8,500 nucleotides of DNA, from IMG/VR virus record IMGVR_UViG_2534681793_000001; one strand, given 5' to 3'. The notes under the pieces were generated by a model. That model did not search any database. It was not told where the DNA came from and saw only the letters and a list, made by a program, of their open reading frames with translations. Shown here in pieces: positions 1-8,490 of the stretch. The DNA is from a virus. Lineage: Duplodnaviria > Heunggongvirae > Uroviricota > Caudoviricetes. A program made the position numbers and the translations under genes. The stretch's first letter is position 1; the number at the start of each line of letters is the position of its first letter.

Positions 1-125
1 CTGGTTGTCTGGAGATTCAGGGGGCCAGTCTAGCTACGTCGCTGGACATATGCTGGCGGTAAGCAATGGAAAGGTCTCATGACTCGTCGTGAGATTGAGC
101 GTGAAATCTGTTTGTGGGGTCAGCA

Positions 126-590
126 ATGAACAGAGTAACCGCGATTATCTCCGCTCTGGTTATCTGCATCATCGTCTGCCTGTCATGGGCTGTTAATCAT
201 TACCGTGATAACGCCATTACCTACAAAGCCCAGCGCGACAAAAATGCCAGAGAACTGAAGCTGGCGAACGCGGCAATTACTGACATGCAGATGCGTCAGC
301 GTGATGTTGCTGCGCTCGATGCAAAATACACGAAGGAGTTAGCTAATGCGAAAGCTGAAAATGATGCTCTGCGTGATGATGTTGCCGCTGGTCGTCGTCG
401 GTTGCACATCAAAGCAGTCTGTCAGTCAGTGCGTGAAGCCACCACCGCCTCCGGCGTGGATAATGCAGCCTCCTCCCGACTGGCAGACACCGCTGAACGG
501 GATTATTTCACCCTCCGGGAACGACTGGTAATGATGCAGGCCCAACTTGAAGGTGCTCAGCAATACATAACCGAGCAGTGTTTAAAGTAA
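126..590 (+). CDS. rz: Rz-type i-spanin (inner-membrane spanin subunit), lambda Rz homologue
   Basis: Translation [28 protein letters not shown]... has one N-terminal TM helix followed by a charged, coiled-coil-like periplasmic domain; near-identical to lambda Rz as I recall it; carries an embedded +1-frame lipoprotein ORF. ORF track starts at GTG 114 but ATG 126 gives the canonical MNRVT N-terminus. Confidence 0.9.
346..531 (+). CDS. rz1: Rz1-type o-spanin (outer-membrane lipoprotein) embedded in the +1 frame of Rz
   Basis: 61-aa [27 protein letters not shown]... with signal peptide, lipobox LVVVGC, and proline-rich mature part ([15 protein letters not shown]); wholly nested in Rz, the classic lambda Rz/Rz1 architecture. 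Confidence 0.85.
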
Positions 591-727
591 AATCTTAACT
601 ACAATATGATTCATTTTGATGATTGTTTCATAAGGAACAGTGAAGTAAGATCTAAGAGGAGTTAAATTTTATACAGTATAATCATAATATTGCAGCAAGG
701 TGGTTATAATTGAAAGAATATTTAGAT

Positions 728-2185
728 ATGAATACATCTCATGTAAGAGTTGTTACTCATATGTGTGGGTTCCTGGTTTGGCTCTATAGTCTTTCAATGT
801 TGCCACCAATGGTTGTAGCATTGTTTTATAAAGAAAAAAGCCTGTTTGTTTTCTTTATAACTTTCGTTATATTTTTTTGCATTGGTGGCGGAGCGTGGTA
901 TACAACTAAGAAATCTGGCATTCAATTACGTACCCGTGATGGGTTTATTATAATTGTAATGTTTTGGATTTTGTTTTCTGTTATTAGTGCATTCCCTTTA
1001 TGGATTGACTCAGAACTTAATTTAACGTTCATTGATGCTCTGTTTGAAGGGGTTTCTGGAATAACAACAACAGGAGCAACTGTAATTGATGATGTTAGTT
1101 CATTACCTCGGGCATATTTGTACTATCGGTCACAGTTAAATTTTATAGGTGGTTTAGGAGTTATTGTTCTGGCGGTTGCTGTATTGCCATTATTGGGTAT
1201 TGGTGGTGCAAAGCTTTATCAGTCAGAAATGCCGGGGCCATTTAAGGATGACAAACTCACTCCCCGCCTGGCCGATACGTCACGGACACTGTGGATAACT
1301 TATTCTTTATTAGGTATTGCTTGTATTGTCTGTTATAGACTTGCAGGAATGCCTTTGTTTGATGCTATTTGTCACGGGATTTCCACAGTTTCGCTTGGTG
1401 GTTTCTCAACTCATAGCGAGAGTATCGGATATTTTAATAACTATTTGGTTGAGCTGGTGGCTGGTTCTTTTTCCCTGCTATCGGCTTTCAACTTCACTCT
1501 TTGGTATATTGTTATTAGCAGGAAAACGATAAAACCTTTAATCAGAGATATTGAACTTCGTTTCTTTCTGTTAATAGCCTTAGGGGTGATCATTGTTACC
1601 TCTTTCCAGGTCTGGCATATAGGTATGTATGACTTGCATGGAAGTTTTATTCATTCGTTTTTTCTTGCCAGCTCCATGCTCACTGATAATGGTTTAGCTA
1701 CGCAGGATTATGCAAGTTGGCCCACGCACACGATAGTGTTTTTGCTGTTGTCAAGTTTCTTTGGGGGATGTATAGGTTCAACTTGTGGTGGAATTAAGTC
1801 ACTTCGATTTCTTATACTTTTCAAACAAAGCAAACACGAGATAAATCAGCTTTCTCATCCCAGAGCGTTGTTGAGTGTAAATGTAGGAGGGAAGATAGTT
1901 ACAGATCGTGTAATGAGGTCTGTATGGAGTTTCTTTTTTCTTTATACTCTCTTCACGGTGTTTTTTATACTGGTGTTAAATGGTATGGGATATGATTTTC
2001 TTACATCATTTGCAACAGTGGCTGCATGTATTAATAATATGGGATTAGGTTTTGGGGCTACTGCATCGTCATTCGGAGTGCTTAATGACATTGCAAAATG
2101 TTTAATGTGCATAGCTATGATTCTTGGTCGCCTTGAAATTTATCCTGTTATTATATTGTTTTCAGGTTTTTTTTGGCGCTCCTAA
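728..2185 (+). CDS. trkG: TrkG/TrkH-family potassium uptake membrane protein
   Basis: 485-aa polytopic membrane protein from ATG 728 (ORF track starts at TTG 710); contains Trk family signatures GITTTGATV, GIGGAKLYQSEMPGP and GGCIGSTCGGIK; matches my recollection of E. coli Rac-prophage TrkG. Strongly AT-rich relative to flanking DNA. Confidence 0.9.
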   Translation: MNTSHVRVVTHMCGFLVWLYSLSMLPPMVVALFYKEKSLFVFFITFVIFFCIGGGAWYTTKKSGIQLRTRDGFIIIVMFWILFSVISAFPLWIDSELNLTFIDALFEGVSGITTTGATVIDDVSSLPRAYLYYRSQLNFIGGLGVIVLAVAVLPLLGIGGAKLYQSEMPGPFKDDKLTPRLADTSRTLWITYSLLGIACIVCYRLAGMPLFDAICHGISTVSLGGFSTHSESIGYFNNYLVELVAGSFSLLSAFNFTLWYIVISRKTIKPLIRDIELRFFLLIALGVIIVTSFQVWHIGMYDLHGSFIHSFFLASSMLTDNGLATQDYASWPTHTIVFLLLSSFFGGCIGSTCGGIKSLRFLILFKQSKHEINQLSHPRALLSVNVGGKIVTDRVMRSVWSFFFLYTLFTVFFILVLNGMGYDFLTSFATVAACINNMGLGFGATASSFGVLNDIAKCLMCIAMILGRLEIYPVIILFSGFFWRS

Positions 2186-2271
2186 TATATGGCTGATTTA
2201 TAATTGTGAGTTTAATATTATGTTGACTCACTCATTGATCCAATACCTAACTTTACCAGCAACACCTCCGT

Positions 2272-2306
2272 CCCCAGTAGCACTGGCTGCTGGGGTGCGT
2301 TTTATT
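2272..2306 (+). terminator. Putative rho-independent terminator downstream of trkG
   Basis: 10-bp GC-rich stem CCCCAGTAGC / GCTGCTGGGG (one G-U wobble) with 4-nt loop ACTG, followed 4 nt later by TTTTATT; lies 87 nt past the trkG stop. The U-tract is not immediately adjacent to the stem, so only moderate support. Confidence 0.4.
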
Positions 2307-2322
2307 CATAAAGCAAGGCTGT

Positions 2323-2760
2323 ATGAGCGAGAAATTAAAGATAGTCTATCGCCCATTACAAGAATTGTCACCGTATGCGCACAACGCCAGGACGCACAGT
2401 ACTGAGCAGGTGGCACAACTGGTAGAAAGTATTAAGCAATTCGGCTGGACTAATCCGGTGCTGATTGACGAAAAGGGCGAAATTATTGCGGGTCACGGTC
2501 GTGTTATGGCGGCTGAAATGCTCAAAATGGATTCTGTTCCGGTCATTGTTCTGTCTGGCCTGACGGATGAGCAGAAAAAGGCGTACCGCCTGGCAGATAA
2601 TCGCCTGCCGATGAATGCTGGCTGGGATGAAGATCTGTTGCGGATGGAGCTGTCGGACCTAATCAATGCTGATTTTGATGTCTCCCTGACAGGCTTCATC
2701 CCGACAGAAATTGATGAACTGTTGACGGATGTTTTGCCCGGTACAGGAACTGGAAATTGA
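2323..2760 (+). CDS. ParB-like nuclease domain (ParB N-terminal/sulfiredoxin fold) protein, probably truncated by frameshift
   Basis: MSEKLKIVYRPLQELSPYAHNARTHS...IAGHGRVMAAEMLKMDSVPVIVL...YRLADNRL carries the ParB N-domain motif pattern (PYxxNxRxHS, GxxR..AA, VPV, LADN). Ends at TGA 2758-2760 while an open frame continues in frame +2. Confidence 0.8.
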   Translation: MSEKLKIVYRPLQELSPYAHNARTHSTEQVAQLVESIKQFGWTNPVLIDEKGEIIAGHGRVMAAEMLKMDSVPVIVLSGLTDEQKKAYRLADNRLPMNAGWDEDLLRMELSDLINADFDVSLTGFIPTEIDELLTDVLPGTGTGN

Positions 2761-2902
2761 ACGGCGCAGAATGGAAAACCAGAAGCTGCGCAAAGAGATC
2801 GAAACGGTGGAAGATAATGAATATCCCCAGCCTGTGGCGATCAATATTAATGTGGTTGATGCCAGAGTAAGGAGTGATGAAGATGATCTCTCCGACGCTT
2901 AA
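2744..2902 (+). pseudogene. Frame-shifted 3' continuation of the ParB-like gene (coiled-coil-like tail), overlapping the terminase start
   Basis: Frame +2 reads QELEIERRRMENQKLRKEIETVEDNEYPQPVAININVVDARVRSDEDDLSDA* directly after the ParB-like stop; skipping one nt in the CCCGG run at 2737-2741 would join the frames (…LTDVLP-VQELEIERRR…). Not in the ORF track because it falls under the size cut-off. Confidence 0.35.
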
Positions 2903-3737
2903 TGTGCCTCAGGCGCGATTTCTTTCAATGCTCCATAAATTTAAAGCCTATATTGCTGGTTTTGGCTCGGGCAAAACATGGGTTGGGTGTGGCGGCATAT
3001 GCAAGGGGATTTGGGAGCATCCAGGTATAAATCAGGGATATTTTGCGCCAACGTATCCCCAAATTCGCGATATTTTTTACCCTACAGTGGAAGAAGTTGC
3101 TGCTGACTGGGGATTGAACGTAAAAATTAATGAGGGAAATAAAGAGGTTCACTTTTATTACGGACGCCAGTATCGGGGAACCACTATCTGCAGATCGATG
3201 GAGAAGCCACAAACGATCGTCGGTTTCAAAATTGGTAATGCGTTGGTGGATGAACTGGACATTTTGCCGAAGGAAAAAGCCAGAACGGCGTGGCGCAAGA
3301 TAATTGCACGTATGCGTTATAAGATTGATGGACTTCGCAACGGTATTGACGTTACAACCACGCCGGAAGGATTCAAATTTGTCTACGAGCAGTTTGTTAA
3401 AGCCGTGCGTGAAAAAACAGAGCTGGCCTCACTGTATGGTCTGGTGCAGGCATCTACTTTCGATAATGAAAAGAACCTGCCAGCAGATTACATTCCTTCG
3501 CTTCTTGAATCATACCCTCCAGAGTTGATTAAAGCCTATCTTCGAGGACAGTTTACTAACCTGACAAGTGGTACTGTTTACCATCAGTTTGACCGGAAAC
3601 TGAATAATTGCGAAGAAGTGGAGCAGCCAGGGGAGCCGATTTATATTGGGATGGATTTTAACGTTGGAAAGATGGCGGGAAGCCATTATGCCATTAACAC
3701 GAACTTCCGATGGTTCTCTTGGTGTCAGAGCTATTAA
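2883..3737 (+). pseudogene. Terminase large subunit, N-terminal ATPase domain only (3'-truncated)
   Basis: Walker A-like AGFGSGKTW, Walker B-like ALVDELDIL, and the beginning of the nuclease domain (EPIYIGMDFNVGK) immediately before the ORF ends; about 285 aa against roughly 450-500 expected. Start ATG 2883 sits 8 nt after SD AAGGAG (2869-2874). Confidence 0.75.
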
Positions 3738-3924
3738 TAGTAAAAGTGGTAATGGAGGCGGAGATATTACCTATGCCCCTGTATACCAAATCACTATTCA
3801 AAATGACGGCCAGAATGGAGAGATTGGCCCTCAGGCAATAAAAGCACTTATGGGGATGGTTGATCAGCGGGTGCAGGGCAATCTGTTAAATATGCGACGT
3901 GATGGGGGAATGTTAAGTGGCTAA
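3694..3924 (+). pseudogene. C-terminal remnant of tail tape-measure protein (lambda H-like), inferred
   Basis: Frame +1 ORF (…GVRAINSKSGNGGGDITYAPVYQITIQNDGQNGEIGPQAIKALMGMVDQRVQGNLLNMRRDGGMLSG*) ends 34 nt before the preferred start of the M-like gene, the position H occupies in lambda. Assignment rests on synteny, not recalled sequence; the 5' boundary is approximate. Confidence 0.45.
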
Positions 3925-3958
3925 TACGGAAGAATTTCACTGGTTACCAGAGGATGGA

Positions 3959-4255
3959 ATGAAAACAGAAAATAAACCATCGATAAAAACTGTAAGATTT
4001 GGCGATGGTTATGAGCAACGAAGTCCAAATGGACTTAATCATTCTCTGCGCGTTTTCACCTGTGATTTCAAAGTTGAGGCGAATGAACGTGATTCATTTG
4101 AAAAATTTTTAGCCCGGCATGAAGGCTATAAATCTTTTTTTTGGCGCCCGCCGGGTATTAACAGAAAAATCAGAGTGGTGTGTCGAACGTGGTCAGCGAC
4201 AGAACATATCACCTATACCGATTTTTCGTGTCAGTTTGACGAAGTGGTGATCTGA
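3959..4255 (+). CDS. M: Minor tail protein M (lambda M homologue)
   Basis: MKTENKPSIKTVRFGDGYEQRSPNGLN...FDEVVI resembles lambda M (…VRFGDGYSQRAPAGLN…EFEQVVN) in sequence and length; SD GAGGA 5 nt upstream of ATG 3959 (ORF track starts at GTG 3917); stop overlaps the L start (TGATG). Confidence 0.85.
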   Translation: MKTENKPSIKTVRFGDGYEQRSPNGLNHSLRVFTCDFKVEANERDSFEKFLARHEGYKSFFWRPPGINRKIRVVCRTWSATEHITYTDFSCQFDEVVI

Positions 4256-4695
4256 TGCAGGACATACAACAGGAAACGCTGAATGAATGCATTCGTGCGG
4301 AGCAGTCGGCCAGCGTGGTGCTCTGGGAAATCGACCTGACAGAGGTCGGTGGAGAACGTTATTTTTTCTGTAATGAGCAGAACGAAAAAGGTGAGCCGGT
4401 CACCTGGCAGGGGCGACAGTATCAGGCCTATCCCATTCAGGGGAGTGGATTTGAGATGAACGGCAAGGGCAGTGCTGCCCGTCCGACACTGACGGTCTCT
4501 AACCTGCACGGCATGATCACCGGGATGGCGGAAGATCTGCAGAGTCTGGTCGGCGGAACGGTGGTCCGGTGTAAGGTTTACGCCCGCTTTCTGGATGCGG
4601 TGAACTTCGTCAACGGAAACAGCGAAGCCGATCCGGAGCAGGAGGTGATCAGCCGCTGGCGCATCGAGCAGTGCAGCGAGCCGGGCTGTGGCTGA
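4255..4695 (+). pseudogene. L: Minor tail protein L (lambda L homologue), truncated after about residue 142
   Basis: MQDIQQETLNECIRAEQSASVVLWEIDLTEVGGERYFFCNEQNEKGEPVTWQGRQYQ...RWRIEQCSE is near-identical to my recollection of the lambda L N-terminus; homology stops at CSE and the ORF ends 4 codons later (PGCG*), against ~232 aa for lambda L. Confidence 0.85.
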
Positions 4696-5510
4696 TTAAA
4701 ACGGAGCTGCTGGAAACGCAGACCGTGGACTTCAGCGTGGGTGCTGAAGGGCTTCGCCATGTACCGGGCGATGTCATTGAAATCTGCGATGATGACTATG
4801 CCGGTATCAGCACCGGCGGGCGCGTGCTGGCGGTGAACAGCCAGAGCCGGACGCTGACGCTCGACCGTGAAATCACGCTGCCATCCTCCGGTACCACGCT
4901 GATAAGCCTGGTTGACGGAAGTGGCAATCCGGTCAGCGTGGAGGTCCAGTCCGTCACCGACGGCGTGAAGGTAAAAGTGAGCCGTGTTCCTGACGGCGTT
5001 GCCGGATACAGCGTATGGGGGCTGAAGTTGCCGACGTTGCGCCAGCGCCTGTTCCGCTGTGTGAGTATCCGTGAGAACGATGACGGCACGTATGCCATCA
5101 CTGCCGTGCAGCATGTACCGGAAAAAGAAGCCATCGTGGATAACGGGGCGCACTTTGACGGCGACCAGAGCGGCACGGTGAATGGTGTCACGCCGCCAGC
5201 GGTGCAGCACCTGACTGCCGAAGTCACCGCAGACAGCGGGGAGTATCAGGTACTGGCCCGCTGGGACACGCCGAAGGTGGTGAAGGGCGTGAGCTTTATG
5301 CTTCGCCTGACCGTGGCAGCGGATGACGGCAGTGAGCGGCTGGTCAGCACGGCCCGGACGACGGAAACCACATACCGCTTCACGCAACTGGCGTTGGGAA
5401 ACTACAGGCTGACAGTCCGGGCGGCAAATGCCTGGGGGCAGCAGGGCGATCCGGCGTCGGTATCGTTCCGGATTCCCGCCGTCACATGCCGGGACCATCA
5501 CCGTGTATGA
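4677..5510 (+). pseudogene. J: Internal fragment of central tail fibre / host-specificity protein J (lambda J-like)
   Basis: Frame +3 RAGLWLIKTELLETQTVDFSVGAEGLRHVPGDVIEICDDDYAGISTGGRVLAVNSQ...YRLTVRAANAWGQQGDPASVSFRI matches an internal (not N- or C-terminal) stretch of lambda J as I recall it; no J N-terminus upstream, and homology ends near 5474. Confidence 0.8.
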
Positions 5511-7479
5511 AGATTCCCGACCCGGTACGCTGAATGATTTTCTCGGTGCCATGACGGAGGATGATGCCCGTCCGGAGGCTCTGCGCCGTTTTGAACTGAT
5601 GGTGGAAGAGGTGGCGCGTAACGCGTCCGCGGTGGCACAGAACACGGCAGCCGCGAAGAAGTCAGCCGGCGATGCCGGCACATCTGCCCGTGAGGCGGCA
5701 ACCCATGCGACTGATGCTGCAGGCTCAGCACGCGCAGCCAGCACGTCAGCCGGACAGGCCGCTTCGTCGGCTCAGTCAGCGTCTTCCAGCGCAGGAACGG
5801 CATCAACAAAGGCCACTGAAGCATCAAAAAGTGCTGCCGCTGCAGAGTCCTCAAAAAGCGCGGCAGCTACCAGTGCCAGTGCCGCGAAAACGTCAGAAAC
5901 GAATGCTGCAGCGTCACAACAATCAGCAGCCACTTCTGCATCCACCGCGACCACGAAAGCGTCAGAAGCTGCCACCTCAGCCCGGGATGCGTCGGCTTCA
6001 AAAGAGGCGGCAAAATCATCAGAAACGAACGCATCCTCGAGCGCCAGTAGCGCAGCTTCCTCGGCAACAGCGGCAGGAAATTCCGCGAAGGCGGCAAAAA
6101 CGTCAGAGACGAACGCCAGGTCTTCTGAAACGGCAGCGGGACAGAGCGCCTCGGCTGCGGCAGGCTCAAAAACAGCGGCTGCGTCGTCTGCCAGTGCAGC
6201 GTCAACAAGTGCCGGGCAGGCCTCAGCCAGTGCCACCGCCGCCGGAAAATCGGCAGAAAGCGCCGCATCGTCTGCTTCAACAGCCACAACGAAGGCTGGC
6301 GAAGCCACTGAACAGGCCAGCGCAGCAGCGAGGTCTGCTTCCGCAGCGAAGACATCCGAAACGAACGCGAAAGCGTCGGAAACCAGCGCAGAATCCTCAA
6401 AAACGGCTGCCGCATCGTCAGCCAGTTCGGCGGCGTCATCGGCATCATCGGCGTCTGCTTCAAAAGATGAGGCGACCAGACAAGCGTCAGCAGCGAAGAG
6501 CAGCGCCACGACGGCATCCACGAAGGCGACAGAGGCTGCTGGCAGTGCGACGGCGGCAGCTCAGAGCAAAAGTACGGCGGAATCCGCGGCAACGCGCGCC
6601 GAGACAGCAGCTAAACGGGCAGAGGATATTGCATCCGCCGTGGCGCTTGAGGATGCAAGTACGACGAAAAAGGGGATAGTACAGCTCAGCAGTGCGACCA
6701 ACAGTACGTCTGAAACGCTGGCGGCAACGCCAAAGGCAGTAAAATCAGCCTATGACAATGCAGAGAAACGTCTGCAGAAAGACCAGAACGGCGCTGATAT
6801 ACCCGATAAGGGATGCTTCCTGAACAACATTAACGCGGTCAGTAAAACAGACTTTGCTGATAAGCGTGGTATGCGTTATATGCGGGTTAACGCTCCTGCA
6901 GGTGCAACATCTGGAAAATATTACCCTGTTGTTGTTATGCGTTCTGCTGGCTCAGTAAGCGAACTGGCATCAAGAGTCATTATCACCACGGCAACGCGAA
7001 CCGCAGGCGATCCGATGAATAACTGCGAGTTTAACGGATTTGTTATGCCTGGTGGCTGGACTGACAGGGGGCGTTATGCTTATGGCATGTTCTGGCAATA
7101 TCAAAACAATGAACGAGCCATTCACTCAATAATGATGAGTAATAAGGGCGATGATTTGCGCTCTGTGTTCTATGTTGATGGCGCTGCTTTCCCTGTTTTT
7201 GCGTTTATTGAAGATGGCCTGTCAATATCCGCACCTGGTGCTGATCTCGTTGTTAATGATACGACCTATAAGTTTGGGGCAACAAATCCGGCGACTGAAT
7301 GTATCGCGGCGGACGTTATCCTTGATTTTAAGAGTGGGCGTGGTTTTTATGAGTCTCATTCGTTAATCGTTAACGATAACTTGTCGTGCAAAAAACTTTT
7401 TGCCACAGACGAAATTGTAGCGCGTGGTGGTAATCAGATTCGAATGAATAGGTGGGGAGTATGGTGCATTATGGCGTAA
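5428..7479 (+). pseudogene. stf: Side tail fibre protein (Stf-like), N-terminally truncated; Ala/Ser-rich repeat region plus divergent central domain
   Basis: From about 5470 frame +1 reads GFPPSHAGTITVYEDSRPGTLNDFLGAMTEDDARPEALRR…, matching lambda Stf from about residue 66 onward by recollection, then a long A/S/T-rich repeat region and KGIVQLSSATNSTSETLAATPKAVK. ATG 5428 is only a chance in-frame start inside J-derived sequence. Ends at TAA 7477-7479 while the fibre continues in frame +2. Confidence 0.8.
5650..6620 (+). repeat. Imperfect tandem coding repeats (Ala/Ser/Thr-rich fibre shaft) within stf
   Basis: Recurring nucleotide unit of the form AAAACGTCAGAAACGAAYGC at about 5887, 6011, 6096 and 6345, each encoding AAK[TS]SETNA, set in continuous A/S/T-rich low-complexity coding sequence. 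Confidence 0.7.
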
Positions 7480-8490
7480 TGATGGCGCTAAAACTTACCT
7501 GCTGCTTACCAATCAAGGTGATGTTTATGGTGGCTGGAATACATTAAGACCGTTTGCTATTGATAACGCAACCGGCGAACTGGTTATTGGAACCAAACTG
7601 TCCGCAAGTCTGAACGGTAATGCATTAACAGCAACAAAGCTGCAAACGCCAAGACTGGTTTCTGGTGTTGAGTTTGATGGTTCCAAAGATATTACTTTAA
7701 CCGCCGCGCATGTGGCTGCTTTTGCCAGAAGGGCAACGGATACATATGCCGATGCGGATGGTGGCGTTCCATGGAATGCCGAATCAGGCGCTTACAATGT
7801 CACCCGCTCTGGCGACAGCTATATTCTGGTTAACTTCTATACCGGAGTCGGAAGTTGCCGGACCCTGCAGATGAAGGCGCATTACAGAAATGGTGGTCTG
7901 TTCTACCGTTCTTCAAGAGACGGTTATGGTTTTGAGGAAGACTGGGCAGAAGTTTATACCTCGAAAAATCTTCCACCAGAAAGCTACCCAGTCGGCGCAC
8001 CAATCCCGTGGCCATCAGATACCGTTCCGTCTGGTTATGCCCTGATGCAGGGGCAGGCTTTTGACAAATCTGCTTACCCGAAACTTGCAGCCGCTTATCC
8101 GTCAGGCGTGATCCCTGATATGCGTGGCTGGACGATTAAGGGCAAACCTGCCAGTGGTCGGGCCGTATTGTCTCAGGAACAGGACGGCATTAAATCGCAT
8201 ACCCACAGCGCCAGCGCATCCAGTACAGATTTGGGGACGAAAACCACATCGTCGTTTGATTACGGCACTAAATCCACGAATAACACCGGGGCACATACAC
8301 ACAGTGTGAGCGGCTCTACAAACTCGGCTGGAGCACACACACACTCACTAGCCAACGTGAACACGGCTAGTGCTAACTCCGGTGCTGGTAGTGCATCAAC
8401 AAGATTGTCTGTTGTGCATAATCAAAACTATGCAACATCATCTGCTGGCGCACATACCCACTCACTGTCCGGCACTGCTGCAAGCGCAGG
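7448..8490 (+). CDS. stf: Side tail fibre distal part (frame +2 continuation, His-box receptor-binding region), partial; runs past window end
   Basis: Frame +2 is open from 7448 to the window end: …[47 protein letters not shown]…[76 protein letters not shown]…GAHTHS…; the segment from GAPIPWPSD onward is near-identical to the lambda Stf C-terminal region as I recall it. Confidence 0.8.

Follow-up and report, generated by a model that had tools for sequence, protein, structure and literature searches.

Genes at the locus

The window, by which we mean the whole stretch of DNA analysed here (8500 nucleotides of the virus record IMGVR_UViG_2534681793_000001), holds a series of phage genes and, between the lysis cassette and the packaging side, an AT-rich segment that we refer to as the island (positions 591–2322). 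The island contains only one long open reading frame (ORF), on the plus strand, which begins at 710 or 728 and ends at 2185. The features of the locus are as follows:

114–590, plus strand: Rz, inner-membrane spanin, last gene of the lysis cassette (PF03245, 175.8 bits)
346–531, plus strand: Rz1, outer-membrane lipoprotein spanin, within Rz in another frame (PF06085, 69.5 bits; rzoD in K-12)
591–727, plus strand: AT-rich upstream region travelling with trkG (25.5% G+C, conserved beside trkG of E. albertii)
728–2185, plus strand: trkG coding sequence (485 aa from ATG 728; 491 aa if from TTG 710)
2186–2232, plus strand: short, AT-rich tail on the 3′ side of trkG, confined to the insert (unrelated in sequence to the spacer before ParB in relatives that lack trkG)
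2233–2322, plus strand: phage-backbone spacer 5′ of the ParB-like gene (homology to relatives without trkG)
2323–2760, plus strand: truncated ParB/Srx-like gene, ynaK, which opens the packaging-side module (PF02195, ParB N-terminal domain; phrog_620; annotated as the ynaK pseudogene)
2874–3737, plus strand: large terminase, N-terminal fragment (PF03237, 116.9 bits; annotated as incomplete)

In RefSeq relatives, Rz starts at the equivalent of window position 126, and in one strain that is 99.9% identical it is labelled ‘lysis protein’. The window matches the Rac prophage regions of E. coli, collinearly and at 98–99.9% identity, and the Rac location given in the initial annotation is correct. 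In the closest strains, the genes run in the order lysozyme (disrupted), Rz/Rz1, trkG, ynaK (ParB-like), terminase fragments, tail fragments, stfR, tfaR, pinR, ydfK and uspF; ynaM also belongs to the last group, between ydfK and uspF, which comes next in these strains. Annotation of PSJ-16, K-12 and strain 162.2 gives the same core order, lysozyme–Rz–trkG–ynaK–terminase. A fuller structural set is present in vB_EcoS-683R6, where Q, tRNAs, holin, lysozyme, Rz, trkG, ParB, two small genes, TerS, TerL and portal follow one another on one strand. There, too, trkG lies between the lysis cassette and the packaging genes, the position first proposed for it here.

Structurally, the prophage is dead, as the initial annotation held. 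Alignment with a fuller relative (L003) resolves the window into five collinear blocks (32–2749, 2739–3576, 3678–4679, 4674–5480 and 5470–8313) with four internal deletions; the first block maps to 6001–8718 of the relative and the second to 11129–11967, and at three of the four deletion junctions the blocks overlap by 6–11 bp. One deletion, of 2.4 kb, fuses the ParB-like gene to the 3′ end of the small terminase gene. The ParB-like protein is 263 aa long in intact relatives, and here homology to it ends at 2749. After the terminase fragment, the next block of homology jumps to the tape-measure and minor tail genes. The head genes are gone, and what is left of terminase, tape measure, L, J and the side tail fibre is fragmentary; no packaging, head or tail set is complete.

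The trkG gene and its product

The protein encoded in the island matches the TrkH family of Pfam (PF02386; 484.2 bits against a cut-off of 27, residues 40–483) and the NCBIfam model TIGR00933 (415.4 bits, above its cut-off of 331). Against the TrkH equivalog model, NF008020, it scores 449.7 bits, far under the cut-off of 866, and so it is a paralogue of TrkH and not TrkH itself. It aligns over residues 7–485 with the solved structures of TrkH from V. parahaemolyticus (4j9u/3pjz; E = 1e-120), and the motifs of its four pore loops, each with the conserved selectivity-filter glycine—TTTG (113–116), LGG (223–225), DNG (320–322) and MGLG (438–441)—align with the loops of that protein. All of these matches lie within the TrkH/TrkG family. 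There are no amino-acid differences from TrkG of K-12 MG1655 (WP_001097895.1), and the two genes differ by a single, synonymous nucleotide; the amino-acid sequence is also identical in three other strains or phage records. The neighbours, Rz/Rz1 and ynaK, are those of K-12 as well, and the comparison with K-12 TrkG suggested at the outset thus ends in identity. Judged by these matches, the gene is trkG, and its predicted product is a full-length member of the TrkH/TrkG family.

In the Trk system, by which the host takes up K+, TrkG serves as the membrane subunit; the partners that it needs, TrkA and SapD, are host-encoded. For the identical K-12 protein, K+ uptake dependent on TrkA (and on SapD/ATP) has been shown experimentally; this uptake requires Na+, Na+ itself is also transported, and loss of TrkH is complemented by TrkG (PMC9898762). 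Asp 327 (D327), a residue that the same work ties to Na+ dependence (PMC9898762), is present in the protein encoded here. With its four-repeat, K+-channel-like pore, TrkG would take up K+ together with host TrkA and SapD.

A role as anti-phage defence cargo was considered, and was dropped because TrkG matches no PADLOC model.

The position of the start codon deserves comment. ATG 728, from which the 485-aa form is translated, has no Shine–Dalgarno sequence. TTG 710, 18 nt upstream, has one (AAGGTGG, 697–703) placed 6 nt before it, and both the TTG and the Shine–Dalgarno sequence are conserved in E. albertii, E. fergusonii and Pectobacterium. Many homologues at 70–75% identity are 491 aa long and have a residue other than Met at the position of the E. 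coli Met-1, from which it follows that they must start six codons earlier. The PHROG family profile of TrkG comprises 491 positions, and one phage record annotates a trkG ORF of 1476 nt. The 485-aa start follows database convention, and the 491-aa form, initiated at TTG, is at least as likely. Of the single, complete, 485-aa Trk gene first described, then, the single ORF and the full-length match to the TrkH family stand, but the true start may give 491 aa.

Base composition of the island

The G+C content of the window is ~0.51 up to ~590, 0.32–0.35 over 600–1200, 0.35–0.44 up to ~2300, and 0.46–0.50 thereafter. By segment, the values are:

1–590, left flank: G+C 0.517
591–2322, island: G+C 0.372
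591–727, upstream spacer: G+C 0.255
728–2185, trkG coding sequence: G+C 0.380, third-position G+C (GC3) 0.321
2186–2322, segment from the 3′ end of trkG to the ParB-like ORF: G+C 0.409
2323–2760, ParB-like ORF: G+C 0.489
2323–4300, right flank: G+C 0.453

The island differs from the left flank (chi-square, p = 9e-10) and from 2323–4300 (p = 7e-7). Maximum-likelihood segmentation, given no coordinates beforehand, places the change points at 561 and 2255. The compositional step originally set at 590 and 2323 is real, but those positions are not exact, and on the right the recovery of G+C past the island is only partial. The largest G+C step of the window is found elsewhere, at 4293 (0.455 to 0.614), where the tail-tip and tail-fibre DNA begins.

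Codon usage changes along with composition. GC3 is 0.321 in trkG versus 0.52 in Rz and ParB, and rare codons account for 9.1% of trkG versus ~5% in the flanks. Low G+C might reflect nothing more than the amino acids, and with them the codons, that a strongly hydrophobic membrane protein favours, rather than foreign origin: TrkG is rich in Phe, Ile and Leu, and its second-position G+C is low (0.399), though near that of the flanking genes (0.36–0.43). The drop is strongest, however, at third positions and in the non-coding spacer, and these values refute the explanation. Homologous transporters at 62–70% identity from Buttiauxella, Morganella and Enterobacter, moreover, have G+C contents of 0.47–0.57 and GC3 values of 0.48–0.72, and trkH has a G+C content of 53% (PMC9898762). 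We give hydrophobic bias next to no credence as the cause.

A variable slot after the lysis genes

The set from which relatives without trkG were taken comprises 80 IMG/VR relatives of the ParB protein. Most of these (71/80) carry trkG and nine do not. Four of the latter illustrate what can lie in its place, between the last lysis gene and ParB:

L097: spanin gene, 126 bp at G+C 0.548, ParB; an empty site
L078: 404 bp between the last lysis gene and ParB, with tiny ORFs only
L087: 612 bp before ParB, occupied by small ORFs, of which one encodes a KTSC domain
L104: type II heat-labile enterotoxin (LT-II) A and B genes (PF01375, PF06453), G+C 0.373, spacer 0.177

In the lambda-like phage ev207, whose Rz is 99.6% identical (to window position 515), the slot is occupied by bor. 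Across its relatives, then, the slot is empty, or it houses small ORFs, LT-II genes, bor or trkG; it is thus a hot spot for cargo, in which trkG is one among several AT-rich alternatives. An exact Rz–ParB junction, sought with an artificial junction query, occurs in none of 5426 complete E. coli genomes, and the evidence for an empty site thus comes from relatives with a different lysis cassette. When phage records were searched with the DNA of 2186–3740, ParB DNA was found only in phages that carry trkG; the other matches were to distant terminases.

We put at about 93% the probability that we are dealing with a moron, trkG, carried by a Rac-type lambdoid prophage of E. coli. One foreign, AT-rich gene, together with its own control region, would have come to occupy the slot between Rz/Rz1 and the ParB-like gene, reading in the direction of the late genes. 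The defining test of a moron, after Hendrix and Juhala, is that the additional DNA separates two genes which adjoin one another in related phages. The moron layout recognized in the initial annotation is upheld on two counts: in relatives the slot is empty or holds other cargo, and the composition of the island differs from that of its flanks.

Borders of the foreign DNA

Beside trkG of E. albertii, the upstream spacer is 85% conserved from ~605 onward, and the last 35 bp of Rz are still recognizable there. This conservation places the start of the AT-rich DNA directly after the Rz stop codon. Homology to lambda-type Rz breaks off earlier, at 515, within Rz (the phage matches, to phages without trkG, span 32–515 only). 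In view of that break, the module may have been exchanged by recombination at a point inside Rz, and the unit transferred may be larger than the AT-rich island.

On the right, the last 65–90 bp before the ParB-like gene, 2233–2322, are ~70% alignable with the corresponding spacer of five relatives that all lack trkG (L078, L080, L087, L097 and L104), the start of this backbone homology being approximate (2233–2257). The trkG-specific DNA accordingly ends at ~2233–2255, not at 2322, and segmentation by composition, with its change point at 2255, bears out this homology-based border. Comparison with relatives lacking trkG, recommended when the island was first described, bears out the variable slot but shifts the right border inwards. 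Flanking direct or inverted repeats, which could mark transposition or site-specific insertion, are limited to short ones at chance level, and none of these bracket the island.

Promoter and terminator

The initial annotation credited trkG with its own AT-rich upstream region, and we agree: the spacer 591–727, at 0.255 G+C, is conserved with trkG in E. albertii. Perfect TATAAT hexamers occur at 677–682 and 705–710, with poor –35 partners, and a sigma-70-like site at 581–610 matches at 9 of 12 positions. A sigma-70 consensus scan found 5 sites versus 6.8 expected from shuffled sequences; there is no enrichment, and the scan does not locate the promoter. No RNA family was recognized anywhere in the window by Rfam at gathering thresholds, and hence the upstream region of trkG contains no known riboswitch or leader. 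Experimental evidence comes from published work. In genomic SELEX, the RpoD holoenzyme gave a binding peak at trkG, within Rac, that is classed as a constitutive promoter (PMC5811629). The trkG promoter drives luciferase activity, trkG transcript levels are similar to those of trkH, and H-NS and StpA partly repress trkG (PMC9898762). We infer that the promoter lies within 591–727. According to this literature, expression of trkG in a lysogen would start at a sigma-70 promoter of its own within the AT-rich spacer, under partial repression by H-NS.

A hairpin is present downstream of trkG at 2269–2299. Its predicted stability is –22.5 kcal/mol (z = –4.3), none of 200 shuffled sequences was as stable, and UUUUAUU follows directly on its 3′ side (U-tract, 2300–2306). 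The five relatives without trkG named above possess a homologous, weaker hairpin followed by T6. The trkG-specific tail, on the other hand, has no terminator-like hairpin of its own: 2186–2262 folds no more stably than shuffled sequence (z = –1.0). Since the hairpin is homologous to the spacer before ParB in phages that lack trkG, it belongs to the phage backbone and not to the moron. A candidate terminator with a U-tract does exist, in other words, as first claimed, but it is part of the backbone rather than of the island's cargo. Because this is the sole terminator-like element, the strict picture of a moron with its own promoter plus its own terminator does not fit. Transcription of trkG probably stops at the backbone hairpin and U-tract, 2269–2306. 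In an intact phage, if the lambda paradigm and the gene order are a guide, transcripts from the late promoter would run on through trkG as well.

Origin, spread and retention of trkG

Outside Rac, the closest proteins are those of E. fergusonii (79% identity), Citrobacter (77%) and Pectobacterium (75%); further TrkG-type paralogues, at 62–70%, occur in Enterobacter, Buttiauxella, Serratia and Morganella. The three non-Rac relatives that we inspected have unremarkable chromosomal surroundings, free of phage genes, and G+C contents of 0.42–0.57, and for this reason the donor was probably an enterobacterial chromosome. One route from such a donor would be imprecise excision of a prophage from the trkG-type locus of another enterobacterium, in the style of specialised transduction, and the phage-free chromosomal settings of the closest relatives (E. 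fergusonii, Pectobacterium and, at 70%, Enterobacter) suit it. But trkG is situated in the middle of the phage map, between the lysis and packaging genes and far from the attachment-site ends, no donor flanking genes accompany it, and unrelated cargo occupies the same slot in sister phages. We consider acquisition by this route very unlikely and favour trkG as moron cargo of the slot.

In E. albertii, trkG (93% amino-acid identity) resides elsewhere on the chromosome, flanked by yebY and rsmF. For this pair of E. coli and E. albertii genes, dN/dS is 0.046 at a dS of 0.94, which indicates that trkG was under strong, long-term purifying selection while prophage-borne. Of the 5426 complete E. coli genomes, 1551 (~29%) have the island; 1542 of them have it at full length, and 1516 records show 99% identity or more. 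These counts do not alone prove selection on trkG, since the collection is clonal in parts, rich in laboratory strains, and includes many K-12 and BL21 derivatives. DNA for TerL and portal of the same phage type occurs in 792 of these genomes. The gene counts fit a published account in which trkG and recE are listed as the best-conserved Rac genes (PMC5700373).

Does trkG persist because it is useful to the host? It is plausible that the segment has been kept for this reason, as the initial annotation proposed, and the dN/dS and the gene counts are consistent with it, but the non-functional 5′ stub of ParB is retained equally often (1556 genomes, about as many as the 1551 with trkG). That equality is what would be seen if the segment had persisted passively, by clonal inheritance and by where deletions happened to end. 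The many K-12 and BL21 derivatives in the collection point the same way, and so does the naming of TrkH as the major system (PMC9898762, where growth of wild-type and ΔtrkG strains under various stresses is also compared). Passive retention sits poorly with purifying selection over a dS of 0.94, with a gene that is full length in 1542 of its 1551 copies when TerL and portal together remain in only 792 genomes, and with the ability of TrkG to complement loss of TrkH (PMC9898762). We regard it as unlikely, although deserving of some weight.

The phage, rather than the host alone, might profit too. The position of trkG in the late operon, its late-gene orientation in intact Rac-type phages and the strong purifying selection would allow a role in lytic growth, for example in restoring K+ lost on infection or induction, with expression of the 491-aa protein from the conserved TTG by Q-dependent read-through. 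We think this rather improbable.

Comparison with known systems

The trkG gene of the Rac cryptic prophage of E. coli K-12 was reportedly described by Schlosser et al. in 1991 (J Bacteriol 173:3170, cited in PMC9898762). Later work on K-12 trkG gives its G+C content as 38%, and covers its location in rac, its partial repression by H-NS and its Na+-dependent K+ uptake (Tanudjaja et al. 2022, PMC9898762). The gene, its Rac location, low G+C, promoter, H-NS control and transport properties are thus all already published. What we add are refinements: the foreign DNA ends ~70–90 bp before the ParB-like gene, and the terminator is consequently supplied by the backbone; the cargo slot is common to trkG, bor and the LT-II toxin genes; and the annotated start codon of trkG may be 18 nt too far downstream. 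These are useful for annotation and make trkG a neat case for the textbooks on morons; no new question arises from them.

Identical though it is in trkG and its neighbours, the Rac prophage of K-12 differs from the window in its pattern of deletions. The window has no IS5/lomR, its ParB stub is 427 bp long versus 254 bp in K-12, and it keeps terminase, minor-tail and J fragments.

TrkH resembles TrkG in several respects. The two belong to the same fold family (PF02386, TIGR00933), have the same length, align from end to end, conserve the pore-loop glycines, and share TrkA and SapD as partners. They differ in that TrkG needs Na+ for K+ uptake and carries Na+, whereas TrkH does neither, and the trkH gene, at 53% G+C, is not bound by H-NS (PMC9898762).

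The bor gene of lambda and lambda-like phages occupies the same map position, directly after Rz, and is likewise a cargo gene expressed in the lysogen. Unlike TrkG, its product is an unrelated small lipoprotein; bor lies on the opposite strand, and is followed by cos instead of a ParB-like gene. The LT-II genes, which have been reported from full-size Rac-like prophages (Jobling 2016, Pathog Dis 74:ftw001, cited in PMC5917428), encode a toxin rather than a transporter, and in L104 they adjoin a lysis cassette of another type, with a GH108 endolysin. Yet they lie in the same slot, directly upstream of a ParB gene that is 92–97% identical, and they carry the same compositional signature, with a G+C content of 0.373 and a spacer of 0.177.

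Translation start and copies of trkG

The sequence AAGGTGG (window 697–703) precedes TTG 710, and translation beginning at this TTG would yield a TrkG of 491 aa, the length of many homologues and of phrog_1916. Both the Shine–Dalgarno sequence and TTG 710 are kept in Escherichia albertii, Escherichia fergusonii and Pectobacterium. The RefSeq start, ATG 728, lacks a Shine–Dalgarno sequence (window 697–730).

Searching 5426 complete E. coli genomes with window 591–2322 found 15 plasmid-borne trkG places, and some chromosomal copies (H56, H76) interrupted by IS5 or IS3. Judging from its sequence, the copy in Shigella flexneri (L023) seems to be degraded: nucleotide identity is 94%, yet the best protein segment reaches just 57%. 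In E. albertii NBRC 107761 (L007, 5800–7460), a diverged trkG (84% nucleotide and 93% amino-acid identity) is flanked by yebY and rsmF, a chromosomal locus other than Rac, and is accompanied by the same upstream spacer as in the window and by a 3' remnant of Rz. A holin-like fragment adjoins it.

Toxin genes and a hairpin in relatives

In L104, a trkG-less relative that shares the ParB gene, the trkG slot is filled by LT-II enterotoxin A/B (3514–4732). Another such relative, L087, carries a pertussis-toxin-like A subunit and a second ORF (1878–3096) upstream of the holin, at the Shiga-toxin position. Rac-like LT-II prophages were reportedly described by Jobling, and the placement of the toxin genes in L104 and L087 agrees with them.

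The spacer preceding ParB in L097 contains a hairpin (3206–3246) with a perfect 19-bp stem (−34.6 kcal/mol, z = −8.1). It recurs in L078, L080, L087 and L104, all without trkG, and is absent from the window; a similar element lies 3' of the E. albertii trkG (about 7500–7545 in L007).

The ParB-like domain

The PADLOC ‘MTase_II’ model hits the ParB-like N-terminal domain (window 2323–2760) with 131 bits, and the domain also matches PHROG DNA-methyltransferase families. These matches stem from phage fusions of ParB domains to methyltransferases; the full-length, 263-aa ParB-like protein has no methyltransferase part.

Deletions and composition

When the window is aligned with L003, a fuller relative, neighbouring homology blocks show overlaps of 11, 6 and 11 bp where they meet at three of the deletion junctions, which suggests that microhomology-mediated deletions took place as the prophage decayed.

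Overlaps at deletion junctions (window coordinates)
2739–2749, junction overlap, 11 bp
4674–4679, junction overlap, 6 bp
5470–5480, junction overlap, 11 bp

The largest compositional step of the window, a rise in G+C from 0.455 to 0.614 at 4293 onward (4294–6646), coincides with the L, J and side-tail-fibre fragments, not with trkG. AT skew is strong (0.3–0.45) across 5600–6700, which codes for an Ala/Ser/Thr-rich, repetitive portion of the StfR-like ORF.
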